Source: an uncultured archaeon (lineage in GTDB: Archaea; Asgardarchaeota; Heimdallarchaeia; Heimdallarchaeales; Kariarchaeaceae). Taken from it: a DNA stretch of 20,046 nt. The notes beneath the pieces are model-generated. The model saw nothing but the letters and a program-made list of their open reading frames with translations. It did not search any database and was not told the DNA's origin. The position numbers and the translations under genes are program-made. Of this stretch, positions 7,659 to 14,537 are shown piece after piece (positions within the stretch are counted from its first letter, which is position 1; every line of letters starts with the position of its first letter). The DNA lies in contig CAZYCQ010000057.1 of the NCBI GenBank assembly GCA_964645535.1, positions 1 through 20,046 of the forward strand. The letters are read 5' to 3'.

Positions 7659-8375
7659 TCAAGAATAGATGATGCTTACAATATTTCCAATGGATTCACT
7701 CAACAGTCCGGCAACGACCGCTATAAAGAAGAATTTCAGACCAGACTTAAGGGGAGAGTGCTTGGCAAGGTAGCCCTTAACAAATCCCAATGAGAAAAGG
7801 GCAGTTGAAGTGGCTACAATTGAACTGTAATAGGCAATTTTCCCAGAAGAGACAAGAAAGGGAACCACTGGGAAGAGGGCTCCAATGACAAAGGCAACGA
7901 ACATGACAACTGCATTCAGGTATGGGTTTTCCTCTTCTACTGAGGGAAGTTCCAATACAGTATCCTTAAAATTTTCAAAGAGAACGGATTTGTTTGTGGA
8001 GATGATCTTGACAACCTTGTATGCTGTCGGTTTATCTAGTCCTTTTTCGACTAACATGTCGAGCAGGCTCTCCTGAGCAAGATAGGGTTCTTTTTCAAAC
8101 ACTTCATATGATTCTTGGATTTCTGCCAACAGGAGGTCTCGTTCAGCTTCAGATGAAAGCAAGGATCCTACGGCCATTGAGATGGCTGCTGCTATTGCGC
8201 CAGTGATGCCAATGATTGCCACAATCAGCCCTTCATTTGGATAGGCACCGTAAATACCGGAAACAAGGCCAAGGATGGAGATCAAGCCATCTTGCATTCC
8301 AAATACAAACTCCCTTGCCCTGCCTTTGATTTCAATTCGTGATTTGACTTTCTCTATTGATGCGAGATCGTTCAA
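7659..8375 (-). CDS. VIT1/CCC1 family Fe2+/Mn2+ transporter
   Basis: REFVFGMQDGL, AAAISMAVGSLLS, acidic cytosolic segment, NP...A...F..GA..P..PF. TTG start with GGAGG 8 nt upstream. Confidence 0.93.
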   Translation of the reverse strand: MNDLASIEKVKSRIEIKGRAREFVFGMQDGLISILGLVSGIYGAYPNEGLIVAIIGITGAIAAAISMAVGSLLSSEAERDLLLAEIQESYEVFEKEPYLAQESLLDMLVEKGLDKPTAYKVVKIISTNKSVLFENFKDTVLELPSVEEENPYLNAVVMFVAFVIGALFPVVPFLVSSGKIAYYSSIVATSTALFSLGFVKGYLAKHSPLKSGLKFFFIAVVAGLLSESIGNIVSIIYS

Positions 8376-8378
8376 GAG

Positions 8379-8882
8379 TTAAGCCTCCTTAAGCGGATCG
8401 TAGTCTGCTGGGCAGAGGGTGCCATGCAATATGGCACGAAGGACACGCATAGTTTCTTCGACTGATCTGCCTATATTCCGTGAATTGATCATTGCAAATT
8501 CGACCTTAAGATCAGGATTGATGATGAAAGTTGCTCTGTGAGCACGGTTATCCGTTGTATCCAGAACTCCGAACTTTTTTGCGAGTTCACCATTTTCATC
8601 AGAGAGGAGAGGATAGTTGATTTTTAATTCTTTGATCCATTCCTTATGGATATCAATGGGGTCTACAGAAATTCCAAAAAGCTTAGTTTGTAAAGTTTGG
8701 AGCTCCTCAAAATGCTTGTTGAAACCAGTCACTTCCGTCGGACAGATGAAACTGAAATCCTCCGGATAAAAGAAAAGGATTGTCCAACATCCATCTAGAT
8801 CTTTTTTTGTATAGTTGCGAACTTCAGCTCCTTTTACACCCGGTAGAGAAAAGGACGGTATTTCCTGATTAATAGTCAGCAT
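8379..8882 (-). CDS. ahpC: Typical 2-Cys peroxiredoxin (AhpC/Prx1 family)
   Basis: FFYPEDFSFICPTE peroxidatic motif, GISVD, YPLLSD, RATFII, IGRSVEE, and LCPADY resolving Cys. ATG at 8882; the track extends to TTG 8885. Confidence 0.92.
   Translation of the reverse strand: MLTINQEIPSFSLPGVKGAEVRNYTKKDLDGCWTILFFYPEDFSFICPTEVTGFNKHFEELQTLQTKLFGISVDPIDIHKEWIKELKINYPLLSDENGELAKKFGVLDTTDNRAHRATFIINPDLKVEFAMINSRNIGRSVEETMRVLRAILHGTLCPADYDPLKEA
8384..8388 (-). promoter_or_regulatory. Shine-Dalgarno GGAGG for the VIT1 gene, embedded in the peroxiredoxin 3' end
   Basis: The minus strand reads AAGGAGGCTTAACTC-TTG. Confidence 0.6.
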
Positions 8883-9010
8883 CAAAAGCCTTGCATTCTC
8901 ATGTTTTGTTAATCTTTCCTAATTTCACAGGAATAAAGTATAGTGATTCACCATGTCTTTGATTTGAGAAGAAGATTTTTGATCCAGAGGCAGACAGTTT
9001 TTCATTACAC

Positions 9011-10408
9011 ATGACGAAAGATAGAAGATTGGGTTATGCCCAAAAGCATTCAGTGAGAAAAAGAGGAGAGAACCCATTTGTTGGCGAACTTGATCCGGAA
9101 GAGCTTTGGGGAATGCTCGAGAAAATGAGCTGGCATAAATTCGAGCACCAAGATCTATCTTTTGTGCATAGAAACATGGTTCGTTCTTTCCTCTCATCAC
9201 ATGAATTGAAGATTGACTTTCGGAAGTACATGGAACTTTTGTTCGAGTATTTTCCGGAGGAGATGGAACAAAACCAAGGGCGTTTTGATTTGGATGGTTT
9301 CAAAAGATCTTTGATCATGGAAGGATTCTTTGACGACAAGCTCCCTTCTGTTTATCCAGCACAATTTGTCAAAATCGAGGGTGAGTTGGTTCTCCGGCAT
9401 CGGGGCACTTCAAGAGAAGATGAGATGAAGTACTATTTCAGGTTACCGCATTTTTCGTCTCAACTGGATATTCAGGAATCGGTAGGCTTAGTGCATTTCA
9501 TCCAAGTATGCAATAGTTACATGCTTTTGGTCATTTCTGAAGATCCAAAAAAGATAACTCCCAGTGAATTTGTCTTGGCAAGTATCCTGACAGTGTTTGT
9601 TCTTAGAAGACATTGGGGGTTATTCTATTTGGCAAAGGATAGGGATGACGACCTAGATGCCTTGTTCATGGTGTTATTGACACCACTCTATCGACTTGCG
9701 GAATACTATCCTGAGAACTGGGTATTGCATCTTTGTCTGTTTTTCCGCCTTGCGGTTGATGCCATTGTTTTTGGGAAAGTGAATATTGACGAAGCGAGAG
9801 CATTTGTTTCATTGGTGAGGAGTTGGAAGGAACTGGATTTGGGAGAAACTGTAACTGATGCAGCTTTAAAACTTCTGGAAATTGAAGGACATCTACCTGC
9901 ACCAACTGTCCAGATTTCTCGAAGAGCTTTTGGCATTGACAATTTCAATCAGATCGTTGTTGCTGAGGAGCAATTGCCGATTCCGTATCTGTTTTTGGAT
10001 GGAGTTTATCTTGGATCGGCAGGGGGACATCATTACTACTACTGTGCAGAAACATTTGGACTACGCCATTTCTGGTCAATAATTGAGCGGATTAGCCTTT
10101 CAGATGTACAGATTTTGACAAAGGACAAGAAGACCTATGTCCAAAAACTAGGTTGGTTGCATATTCACACGATTGATTATCTCAGGGCCAATTTGAATGA
10201 CTATAGGATGCCCTTCCCGGATCCACTGCGTACTGTTGCAGTATCACTTCCGAATGGATTACAATTGGAGGAAGAAATTGCTTATGACTTTCTTTTCGAG
10301 ATCGGAACAACAAAATTCTATCTGATAGGGTTGAATACAATCTATGATTTGCTCGAGCTTTACGGAAATATCCGAAAAACACCAGGTGCAGAATTAATTT
10401 TTTACTGA
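9011..10408 (+). CDS. Hypothetical soluble protein (465 aa)
   Basis: Long ORF with ATG start, divergent from the peroxiredoxin gene. Protein-like composition but no motif recognised. Confidence 0.82.
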   Translation: MTKDRRLGYAQKHSVRKRGENPFVGELDPEELWGMLEKMSWHKFEHQDLSFVHRNMVRSFLSSHELKIDFRKYMELLFEYFPEEMEQNQGRFDLDGFKRSLIMEGFFDDKLPSVYPAQFVKIEGELVLRHRGTSREDEMKYYFRLPHFSSQLDIQESVGLVHFIQVCNSYMLLVISEDPKKITPSEFVLASILTVFVLRRHWGLFYLAKDRDDDLDALFMVLLTPLYRLAEYYPENWVLHLCLFFRLAVDAIVFGKVNIDEARAFVSLVRSWKELDLGETVTDAALKLLEIEGHLPAPTVQISRRAFGIDNFNQIVVAEEQLPIPYLFLDGVYLGSAGGHHYYYCAETFGLRHFWSIIERISLSDVQILTKDKKTYVQKLGWLHIHTIDYLRANLNDYRMPFPDPLRTVAVSLPNGLQLEEEIAYDFLFEIGTTKFYLIGLNTIYDLLELYGNIRKTPGAELIFY

Positions 10409-10477
10409 TACGGATATTGCAAGATGAAGATTCAGATTGCAATTTCCCGAAAAAAAACAGGAGTGGCAGTTTGGCTA

Positions 10478-10489
10478 GAAAGTTTAAAT
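10478..10489 (+). promoter_or_regulatory. BRE/TATA-like element (GAAAG-TTTAAAT) for the Rab-like gene
   Basis: TTTAAA at 10483-10488 lies ~26 nt upstream of in-frame GTG 10514, the same spacing seen at other genes in the window. Confidence 0.5.
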
Positions 10490-10513
10490 CTTTCAAATCC
10501 AATTATTGGGATT

Positions 10514-10987
10514 GTGGGAAAGCAACTCAAGATTTCTTATTTTGGAACCAAAACGAAAATCAACCAAAGGGCTTCTCGAGCAATTTCAGGAGAATTTTTG
10601 AGAGATGAGTTGGGAGACATCGGAGCGGATTTTCGCCAGCAAGAAATTGAGAGTGACGGCGAAAAATTGAAGGTTCAGGTCTGGGATGTTGTGGTTTCAA
10701 AGATGACAAAGTCCATCAGAAAGAGATTTTATCTTGGCACAAAAGCTGTAATTCTTCAAATGGATGGCAGGGAAATGCTTGATTCTTTGGATGAAATTAT
10801 CAGGGAAATCCGTCAAACATCCCCAAGGATGAAAATTGCAGCAGTGATTGACCGAAGTGATGATTGGGCAAGAGAAAATGAGGAAAGAATCAAACGATTG
10901 CTTTATGGCAAGGGAATTTTTGACATCCTTATCACGGATGGTGATACTGAAGAGTTCCAAAAGTTTCTCAAAAGCCTATCGAAGTAA
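10514..10987 (+). CDS. Rab-like small GTPase homologue with degenerate nucleotide-binding motifs (candidate pseudoGTPase)
   Basis: IGADF, DGEKLKVQVWD and SIRKRFYLGTKAVIL align with RabF1-F4, while G1-G5 are non-canonical. Start is probably GTG 10514 (157 aa); the ORF is open from ATG 10424. Confidence 0.82.
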   Translation: MGKQLKISYFGTKTKINQRASRAISGEFLRDELGDIGADFRQQEIESDGEKLKVQVWDVVVSKMTKSIRKRFYLGTKAVILQMDGREMLDSLDEIIREIRQTSPRMKIAAVIDRSDDWARENEERIKRLLYGKGIFDILITDGDTEEFQKFLKSLSK

Positions 10988-12013
10988 TGATTTTTTCTTT
11001 TTTCTAAGAAAAGCGATAAGGACAATAGGGAGAAACAGCAATGGTGAGGAAAGAGAAAATCGTTGAGGAGAGGTTGGTTTGAGCAATTCCAAGTTCTGTA
11101 CAATTGCGGTCTCACCTTCTTGGATAATATGGATCTTAGTCTCTCGCAAGAAATAATCCCCTGATATAATATCCATAATTATCCTGCCTGATTGGATAAA
11201 GGTTTCTTTCATGAGGCCTGTTTCCTTGTCAAAAAGTATTCCAAAGGTCGAATTGGGAGGATAGGTGCCTGCAAAGAGGGGAATTGAAGGATCAATGATT
11301 TCACTAAGGTTAAATTCAGGGATGAAAGTGTGGGAATACAGAAAACCATAAGTAAAGTTTTCTCGTGCAATGATGGCAGAATAAGAATAATTCACAAGTA
11401 GTTGATTATATTTTTCAGGAATGAGATCATCAAGATTTGGATCCAAAATTTTTAGCAAACGTGAAAGACTTAGTCTAACGGAAGTTCCATTGGTATTGAA
11501 TATATAGGTCGAAGGATCCATTTTTTCTGCAATATCGATATCCAGCTGATTGGATTGCCTATATTGATCCGCAATAACTGCTCCAAGAAGACAATCATTT
11601 TTCATTGCATCAATAGGATAGACAAAGTAATAGTAATAGCTTGAGGGAAGATCCGGACAGACATTTCCATCAAGTCCCTGAACTTTTGCAATGGCAGTAC
11701 CGTCTATGGTAGGATAAGTCATATTTGCTTCGAAATTTATGTTCAATTCAGAATCATAGAGTACAGGCATATCAAACTTGGTTTGTGATTTGATTTCAGT
11801 AGACCCGATTTCGATCACAGATAATTCCGCAGTTCCTTTTGTTGTTTCATTTTGGATGGGGAATTGAGGTTCACCATCTATCAGTGGAATTGTGGTCGCA
11901 ATTTTTTCGACTTCATAGGAGATATGGTCTCCTTGCTGTATCCCGAAATCATAGGCAGAACCGTTTGGAATAAGAAGAAGGAAAAATAATGGAATAGTTA
12001 ACCAAAAACGCAT
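10976..12013 (-). CDS. Secreted/surface protein with signal peptide and C-terminal TM plus basic-tail anchor
   Basis: Signal peptide MRFWLTIPLFFLLLIPNGSA, mature start YDFGIQQGDHISYEV, many N-x-S/T sequons, and C-terminus PLLFLPIVLIAFLRKKKK. Confidence 0.85.
   Translation of the reverse strand: MRFWLTIPLFFLLLIPNGSAYDFGIQQGDHISYEVEKIATTIPLIDGEPQFPIQNETTKGTAELSVIEIGSTEIKSQTKFDMPVLYDSELNINFEANMTYPTIDGTAIAKVQGLDGNVCPDLPSSYYYYFVYPIDAMKNDCLLGAVIADQYRQSNQLDIDIAEKMDPSTYIFNTNGTSVRLSLSRLLKILDPNLDDLIPEKYNQLLVNYSYSAIIARENFTYGFLYSHTFIPEFNLSEIIDPSIPLFAGTYPPNSTFGILFDKETGLMKETFIQSGRIIMDIISGDYFLRETKIHIIQEGETAIVQNLELLKPTSPQRFSLSSPLLFLPIVLIAFLRKKKKSLLR
10990..11003 (+). terminator. Oligo-T tract, candidate archaeal intrinsic terminator for the Rab-like gene
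   Basis: TTTTTTCTTTTTT begins just after TAA 10987. It is the reverse complement of the poly-Lys codons of the convergent gene. Confidence 0.35.
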
Positions 12014-13469: not shown

Positions 13470-14537
13470 CTATTTCTTCCCATTGTTTGATAGGAATATC
13501 CGAAGTTTGGAGTGAATGTCAGCTGCAAAGGTATCCTGATGTTCACCGCTAATACTTCCATTTGATCCAATGATTGGGATATCCCATTTGGCAATGAGGT
13601 TCTTGAAAATCCCATCAAGCAATGGATGAGAGCCTGTAGAGATGGCAAATATTGAATTTTCCTTTCCGGGATACACGCCAATGGTATAATCTGCGTATCC
13701 AAGTTTTGGTGGAAGTTCATCTCTTCCAGATATTTCTTTGATTACAGCAAATATTCCTTGGAGACCTGCGGATGTCAATGAATGTTGAATTTCTTGTTCA
13801 ATGGGGTAGGAGACCGCTGCGAGACCAGAAGATCGTTGAGCGAGAATTACTTTTTCCAGAACAATATCGGGGACAATTAGCGAGGTGGGATCATAGGTGA
13901 GTGCCAACACTAAGGCCAAAGCCCCCATTGCAGAAGGGAACTGATAAAATGATGTCGGGAATGGAAGCTCCTCTCTGAAAACCAAGAGAAAAAAGCTGAT
14001 AAGATAAGAAGTGGGGTATAATATGGCGACTTTGGCCCATTTTGAGGGGTTTTTTCTTGCTCCGTTGATGAAAAGCCTCAGGTATTCCACTAAAATCCAT
14101 GCTACAGGACCATACATCAGAAGTCGAATTGCATTGTTTCGTTTGATGATCCAATTAGTTCCATCCCAATTGACTTCGGTTCCGATTATTATCCAACCCA
14201 TGCTAAATCCGGCAAGAAGAAGCAATACCAAAAATCTTTGAGGAACATTTGCCGCCTGATGAACCTGGAGATTCCAAACTGTCAGAACCATTCCTATGAG
14301 AAGAGTGATTGCCCCGAGAATTGCAGCGAAAGTGATGATTTCAGTGTATTGATTACCTTCTAGAAATGCCTGGGGAATGAATGAGACAGGAAGACCAGCT
14401 TGCAGGACAATTCCCAATGAAACAAGTTTAAGGTGTCTAGTATTCAAAGAATTAGTTTTCAGATACAGCAATAGTCCTCCGAGGATAATCATGATTGAAG
14501 AAAGGCCGGAATATATCAAGGTAGGAACATTTGTCAT
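13470..14537 (-). CDS. Seven-transmembrane protein fused to a C-terminal longin/roadblock-like domain
   Basis: Seven hydrophobic segments in aa ~6-215. The C-terminal ~130 aa has VIL..R.SGL..VSY, L.SAGLQGI...IKEISG, three beta strands and two helices, a longin-like pattern. Confidence 0.8.
   Translation of the reverse strand: MTNVPTLIYSGLSSIMIILGGLLLYLKTNSLNTRHLKLVSLGIVLQAGLPVSFIPQAFLEGNQYTEIITFAAILGAITLLIGMVLTVWNLQVHQAANVPQRFLVLLLLAGFSMGWIIIGTEVNWDGTNWIIKRNNAIRLLMYGPVAWILVEYLRLFINGARKNPSKWAKVAILYPTSYLISFFLLVFREELPFPTSFYQFPSAMGALALVLALTYDPTSLIVPDIVLEKVILAQRSSGLAAVSYPIEQEIQHSLTSAGLQGIFAVIKEISGRDELPPKLGYADYTIGVYPGKENSIFAISTGSHPLLDGIFKNLIAKWDIPIIGSNGSISGEHQDTFAADIHSKLRIFLSNNGKK

Follow-up and report, generated by a model that had tools for sequence, protein, structure and literature searches.

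The window analysed here, a stretch of 20,046 nucleotides from an uncultured archaeon of the Kariarchaeaceae (Heimdallarchaeia), contains on its forward strand a gene that the original prediction, made from the sequence alone, had read as a Rab-like pseudoGTPase with an intact frame and a promoter of its own. Assembly GCA_003696825.1, in which the window is found, derives from the metagenome of a hot spring. The gene and the features at its 5' end are given below.

10424..10513, forward strand: open 30-codon extension included in the database gene call, overlapping the promoter and interrupted by in-frame stops in three orthologues
10475..10489, forward strand: putative promoter of archaeal type, BRE-like CTAGAA followed by TATA-like TTTAAAT, 31 nt ahead of the start
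10514..10987, forward strand: Rab-like pseudoGTPase gene, 157 aa, GTG start (set by the orthologues) and TAA stop

The open reading frame, its coordinates and the motif readings were present in the sequence as predicted. The 157-aa product is a stand-alone protein with an unbroken reading frame, and the contigs of an independent assembly of the probable source run carried the same gene sequence with zero differences. The database call starts at ATG 10424. This start was rejected and GTG 10514 was taken as the right one because of the in-frame stops in the three orthologues, which start with ATG, TTG and ATG at the place matching the GTG; the extension is probably not translated. When four orthologues were compared, CTAGAA was invariant and an A/T box was located 31–33 nt ahead of the start codon, and this kept spacing supports the claim of an own promoter. 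BRE and TATA elements at such spacing are the archaeal promoter geometry on leaderless mRNA. The element at 10475..10489 is thus predicted to function as a BRE/TATA promoter, implying a leaderless mRNA. A search within the genome found no other genes with a CTAGAA-TATA promoter. A sigma-70 promoter scan, using a model unsuited to archaea, gave a chance-level result and was discarded.

In the profile search, the product scored above the curated Pfam cut-offs for both Roc (34.8 bits against 27) and Ras (27.9 bits against 21.6). Its best sequence matches in the PDB were Rab30, Rab35 and Rab33B (E 4e-9 to 1e-7), and HHalign against 108 Asgard Rab-like rows gave a probability of 99. The AlphaFold model, for which the input alignment held the five orthologues only and no intact GTPase, had a mean pLDDT of 90.8 and showed a complete G-domain with six strands and five helices in full order, in agreement with the fold presumed in the original prediction. 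Foldseek on this model ranked Rab structures first (TM 0.74 to Rab33), and VIA gave Z scores of 16.0 for RhoA and 15.8 for Rab23, with Z 15–16 for Rho and Rab alike and a superposition of 148 aligned residues at an rmsd of 2.7. The single-sequence fold of the orthologue P0005, with a pLDDT of 60, was uninformative. The sequence matches put Rab/Ras homology well above chance and agree with the predicted small G-domain fold of the Ras superfamily.

The search for orthologues covered 5.8 billion proteins and 1.84 billion representatives, as well as 83 genomes of the class (all candidates scored) and 400 of the phylum (9 candidates per genome scored). Four independent orthologues with 37–68% identity were obtained, namely P0003 (68%), P0004 (67%, partial), P0005 from genome G002 (41%) and L003 from genome G001 (38%), where G000 denotes the genome of the window and G001, G002 and G003 are other genomes of its genus. 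Their range is one genus and two metagenome species; no orthologues outside the genus clade were found in these searches, and the JGI metagenomes scanned with two queries gave no relatives. Genome G003, from the same genus and 93% complete, had no orthologue, and its regions around the relatives of the M20 peptidase and of the upstream gene contained no G-domain gene; the pseudoGTPase is therefore not essential to the genus. A sequence in another assembly (L081:1328-1687, GCA_964604935.1) is near-identical to the G001 orthologue L003 for ~330 nt, then unrelated, with a stop at 119 aa, and is either a truncated allele or a misassembly.

The pseudoGTPase orthologues formed one clade with a support of 100 and a very long stem, and the trees, including the mixture-model tree, did not place the parent paralogue. 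The divergent protein L011 and the degenerate family of P0078 and its G004 copy were considered as sister groups and found no support in the mixture-model tree. The genome of the window has 31 Ras-family matches with ~22 intact Rab-like proteins, and the pseudoGTPase was the only Rab-like protein without a P-loop motif found in it by profile, being present as a single copy amid about 20–30 intact paralogues. G001 also has a Rab-like gene (G001:C435:10008-10406; L165:1991-2401) that is intact apart from a single interrupting TGA; it lies next to an intact paralogue and ~6 kb away from the orthologue of the pseudoGTPase.

The fast evolution and narrow range of the gene, together with the one truncated near-copy in another assembly (P0006), would fit a decaying pseudogene or an assembly artefact. 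This possibility was largely refuted by five intact frames among the orthologues, which also bear out the intact frame first described, by the conserved promoter spacing and by the identity of the independent assembly, and the substitution pattern stood against it as well. The closer pairs have saturated synonymous sites (pS 0.72–0.83) and a pN of 0.21, which equals that of the neighbouring peptidase, peroxiredoxin and YdjM genes. The codon model gave an omega of 0.026, a soft point value given the saturated dS, and rejected omega = 1 (2dlnL 261). Thus, the gene is not decaying and is under purifying selection, not neutral evolution, and we regard a pseudogene or artefact as most improbable. 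At the same time, in a sample of five sequences from three deep lineages, the pseudoGTPase evolves faster than any intact paralogue pair: its identity between G000 and G002 is 39–41% against 64–97% (median 84%) for the intact paralogues, and between G000 and G001 it is 37% against 51–94%.

The nucleotide-binding motifs of the family were compared with those of 108 other Asgard Rab-like rows, and their positions in the window are as follows.

10544..10567, forward strand: degenerate G1/P-loop GTKTKINQ (residues 11–18), with no invariant column among the orthologues
10616..10636, forward strand: G2/RabF1, with the G2 Thr lost, G37, D39 and aromatic 40 kept, and R41 as a new invariant
10670..10699, forward strand: RabF2 and G3, with W57 and D58 invariant and Ala-Gly-Gln changed to hydrophobic-hydrophobic-Ser
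10847..10861, forward strand: degenerate G4 IDRSD, with Asn changed to an invariant Asp, Lys lost and the last Asp in 4/5; register partly ambiguous
10931..10942, forward strand: shortened and degenerate G5 loop ITDG, variable among the orthologues

The G1 consensus GxxxxGK[ST] is absent from all four full-length rows, and the P-loop has 0/8 invariant columns, its consensus Gly, Lys and Thr having been lost in the family. The position of the G2 Thr is occupied by D, D, E or I, and three orthologues have a Thr at the next position. In G3, the Asp (D58) is invariant in all five while the Gly and Gln are gone, the last Asp of G4 (D116) is kept in four of the five orthologues, and G5 SA[KL] has no recognisable counterpart. 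The register of G4 and G5 is ambiguous, as HHalign, by opening a 3-residue gap, aligns D113 with the G4 Asp, whereas the AlphaFold strand 107–113 favours the colinear G4 reading originally proposed. An aromatic residue at the Phe28 position is kept in the three rows without a gap. The orthologues therefore also lack the G1–G5 consensus, and the claim that all G motifs are lost was confirmed for the motifs and slightly overstated for their residues; as read from the alignment, every motif is broken, yet not every residue is lost, D58 and D116 being the exceptions. We infer that nucleotide binding is absent.

An alternative is that the pocket has been rebuilt, so that the invariant R19, R22, R30, D58 and D113 (with D116) would hold an atypical ligand: a weakly bound nucleotide, some other metabolite carrying a phosphate, an acidic lipid or a metal. 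The new invariant Arg right after the P-loop, the invariant Asp replacing the G4 Asn, the aromatic at the Phe28 position and the retention of D116 are in line with such a pocket, and the definition of class i pseudoGTPases admits atypical ligands (PMC5593906, Table 2 note). However, the P-loop without an invariant column carries bulky side chains where glycines are needed, G5 is gone along with the G4 Lys and the Leu after it, and an Arg-Asp pair could equally plug the pocket as does the Arg-Glu pair in p190RhoGAP pG1 (PMC5593906), which leaves a ligand binder unlikely.

Further regions of the putative binding face lie between these motifs and include the following features.

10568..10615, forward strand: helix 1 and the beginning of switch I; R19, S21, S25 and R30 are invariants specific to the lineage, rare in or absent from the 108 other rows
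10700..10741, forward strand: switch II, RabF3/RabF4, with T65, I68, R71, F72 and G75 invariant and two short helices in the model
10808..10834, forward strand: end of helix 3 and loop 7 (RabSF3 position), with invariant I99, R100, T102, P104 and K107

The aromatic triad (F/Y40, W57 and F72) was retained as predicted. RabF1, RabF2 and RabF4 were also largely kept, whereas the predicted retention of RabF3 was partial, its Phe being an invariant Thr, and RabF5 keeps the Leu and Asp only. No C-terminal prenylation cysteines were found in the five orthologues, in accordance with the missing Cys motif of the window gene; Asgard Rab-like proteins are normally without C-terminal Cys, and Thor-Rab is likewise (PMC10933270). 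When position sets taken from Ras/Rab numbering, and picked after the alignment was seen, were compared, 9/11 Rab-face positions were kept in all orthologues against 2/12 nucleotide-contact positions (Fisher p 0.003). The face did not differ significantly from the other highly conserved structural columns (9/11 against 4/6, Fisher p 0.58). Furthermore, switch II is remodelled: the G3 Ala-Gly is replaced by bulky residues that extend strand 3, the Gln by an invariant Ser and the RabF3 Phe by the invariant Thr. The helix-3 Trp, which is 95% conserved in the intact rows, is gone from the pseudoGTPase family, and 17 invariant columns carry residues rare in the intact rows, including R19, S21, R30, R41, S62, T65, T102, K107 and D113. 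Thus, the proposal that selection kept the interaction surface and dropped switching was upheld in part, as the motif loss in all orthologues, the purifying selection, the G-domain fold and the triad agree with it, whereas the face is not better kept than the structural columns and switch II has been rebuilt. Of the refuting outcomes named in the original prediction, intact motifs in the orthologues, neutral evolution and the lack of a predicted G-domain fold did not arise.

Conservation is concentrated in helix 1, switch II and strands 3–5. The most conserved stretch runs from strand 3 through switch II to strand 4, with 26–30 of 31 positions identical in the three closer species. These data bear on the possibility that the RabF residues are kept for the fold alone and that the protein acts via another surface, in a larger complex or as a homo-oligomer. 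RabF1, 2 and 5 sit on core strands, the structural columns are kept about as well as the face columns, and AAGAB, the best studied stand-alone pseudoGTPase, binds via a surface away from the switches (PMC12490416) and provides a precedent. On the other hand, the C-terminal region of helix 4, strand 6 and helix 5 is the least conserved, with 3/41 columns invariant against 8/18 in switch II and 5/9 in helix 1, and the polar D39, R41, R71 and R100 are invariant. This pattern, high in helix 1, switch II and strands 3–5 and low in the C-terminal third, favours the switch side over a distal surface of the AAGAB type, and retention for the fold alone appears decidedly unlikely.

Degraded G motifs within a G-domain fold, together with maintenance by selection, place the product, as predicted from sequence and model, among the class i pseudoGTPases. 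We consider it probable, with moderate confidence, that it is a nucleotide-free module of fixed shape that binds a protein partner on its switch side. A duplication of a Rab-like GTPase gene may have taken place in the ancestor of a single heimdallarchaeial genus clade, and the duplicate would have lost GTP/Mg binding and changed quickly. Since then, selection would have maintained it in the form of a small, soluble G-domain protein without switching, constantly bound to its partner via what we infer to be a protein-binding face formed by helix 1, switch I, the interswitch strands, switch II and the helix 3 loop. Within this class i reading, a dedicated adaptor or scaffold is put forward tentatively.

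It is also possible, if doubtful, that Heimdallarchaeia have in this protein a naturally evolved decoy, or else a fixed adaptor, dedicated to Rab-like signalling, a dead paralogue with a conserved promoter of its own that would bind the regulators or effectors of the intact switches via the ancestral triad face. As a trap in the strict sense, a sub-case of the class i reading, it would mimic a nucleotide-free Rab and tie up the exchange factors or regulators of the 20–30 intact paralogues, thereby damping signalling. A model for such a trap is provided by Ypt1 N121I and D124N, in which G4 function is lost and the regulator-binding face is kept, and which bind no nucleotide and block the exchange factor (PMC2120555). 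In the pseudoGTPase, other residues stand in place of the G4 Asn and Lys, and the G-x-D-(F/Y) motif, W57 and F72 are kept; its K-R-F-(F/Y)-L-G stretch is like that of the intact paralogues C17:13138 and C4:53434, and the genome has ~31 Ras-family matches. The Ypt1 variants, however, are laboratory point mutants of an intact Rab, whereas the pseudoGTPase is natural and extensively remodelled. A decoy should follow the surface of its parents, but switch II has the new invariants S62 and T65, the helix-3 Trp is gone, divergence is far faster than in the intact paralogues and the trees do not place the parent, so that a trap seems somewhat unlikely. An adaptor or scaffold is slightly likelier than a decoy, since the rebuilding of switch II has led away from the sequence of the parents.

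The genes around the pseudoGTPase were searched for a partner of this putative binding module. Neighbours linked to it across three or four genomes are a convergent membrane-anchored protein, an M20 peptidase, the 465-aa upstream gene and YdjM; they are rearranged between genomes, absent at the G001 locus and not in one operon with the pseudoGTPase, and therefore indicate no functional link. The 465-aa protein (9011-10408, forward strand) has no Pfam match, is found in 4/4 genomes of the genus and lies near the pseudoGTPase at three loci. The protein encoded at 10976-12013 on the reverse strand has a signal-peptide-like start, a C-terminal membrane anchor and no Pfam match; its gene is convergent with the pseudoGTPase in 4/5 orthologous loci and evolves fast (24–49% identity), and among 47 genomes of the order it was found in G000 and G002 only. 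The gene at 13470-14537 (reverse strand) encodes a multi-pass membrane protein with a C-terminal longin-like domain, assigned by eye and without a Pfam match, which is 74–76% identical in L021 and G002 and was not found in G001 and G003. Proximity of this 7TM-longin gene to the pseudoGTPase is limited to the two closest genomes, with the gene on another contig in G002, and gene order therefore gives no link between them. A complex prediction of the pseudoGTPase with the longin domain (13473-13880) scored 0.02 and gave no answer, and no partner was identified from the gene neighbourhood or from this prediction. Tandem genes for a peroxiredoxin (AhpC/TSA) and a VIT1-family iron transporter at 7659-8885 (reverse strand) are conserved in L021.

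The best sequence and Foldseek matches are eukaryotic Rabs (Rab30, Rab33, Rab35, Rab8 and Rab1), which have the triad positions F/Y40, W57 and F72 in common with the pseudoGTPase; in contrast to them it has no nucleotide motifs, hypervariable tail or prenylation motif, and RabF3 and RabF5 are partly kept. The top language-model feature matches (0.93–0.94) were to RABL5/IFT22, likewise a small non-prenylated Rab-like fold, and no alignment supports orthology. IFT22 keeps its P-loop and binds nucleotide. The Asgard Rab-like GTPases (Thor-Rab, PMC10933270; the family of Surkont and Pereira-Leal, PMC4915359) are alike in the stand-alone G domain, the RabF1/2/4-type residues, the want of C-terminal cysteines and the expanded paralogue set. 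However, Thor-Rab binds GDP and GTP and hydrolyses GTP (PMC10933270), whereas all members of the pseudoGTPase family are without the G1–G5 consensus, and the pseudoGTPase is shorter (~155 aa) and evolves about four times faster. The class i pseudoGTPases p190RhoGAP pG1 and pG2, CENP-M and fungal dynein light intermediate chain (PMC5593906) and AAGAB/Irc6 (PMC12490416) have the same G-domain fold with five degraded motifs, likewise kept by selection, and act as binding modules (PMC5593906, PMC12490416). Those proteins are eukaryotic and mostly domains or subunits, with measured loss of binding and known complexes, whereas the archaeal protein is known from its sequence and predicted fold. No homology between them beyond the fold was found, and the narrow taxonomic range of the archaeal family argues for a separate origin.

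Other degenerate Rab-like proteins were observed in these archaea. P0078 (L159:1635-2351, GCA_021399405.1) and L162 (G004:C44:17797-18501) make up a second degenerate family in the same archaeal family, with a P-loop one residue short and without the GK motif and with WDISN as G3; G4 is broken in P0078 and intact in the G004 copy L162, which has an extra N-terminal helical domain. G1 and G4 are broken both in P0082 (L161:40-849), which has a C-terminal Cys cluster, and in P0089 (L160:4001-4483), which follows a 697-aa gene with tandem GTPase domains. The divergent L011:1242-1757 (G040) has an intact G1 and altered G3 (WDLPAQ), G4 (GAKND) and RabF1. At rank 5 in the ESM Atlas, with a model-feature likeness of 0.93, stands a cluster of 65 Thorarchaeota 'hypothetical proteins' of 185 aa that have no Pfam family; it may be a further G-domain family lacking the motifs. 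In the tree, three partly degenerate Rab-like proteins encountered in this analysis are placed away from the present family. Judged from these sequences, an expanded family would have lost the switch several times independently, and the present gene appears to be a genus-limited, stand-alone case of this in Heimdallarchaeia.

Asgard Rab-like GTPases are already known (PMC4915359, PMC10933270), and pseudoGTPases are well known in eukaryotes, where the role of a fixed binding module has mainly been described so far. The AAGAB paper mentions prokaryotic pseudoGTPases and gives no archaeal examples (PMC12490416), and our literature search, with the prokaryotic examples of the FEBS J pseudoGTPase review outside its scope, found no paper pairing 'pseudoGTPase' with 'Asgard'. 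Asgard archaea have dozens of Rab-like GTPases and hardly any known partners. As a protein that retains the Rab face and is not expected to cycle, the pseudoGTPase would be a convenient bait for archaeal Rab regulators and effectors; if it is indeed a decoy or fixed adaptor, it would serve as a stable bait to find archaeal Rab regulators that are still unknown. Being confined to one genus clade, it would represent a parallel invention and not an ancestor of a eukaryotic pseudoGTPase, and the decoy or fixed adaptor, if true, would mean that archaea evolved pseudoenzyme control of small-GTPase networks separately from eukaryotes. A switch-less paralogue maintained by selection shows that Asgard networks are complex enough to recruit pseudoenzymes, as in eukaryotes.
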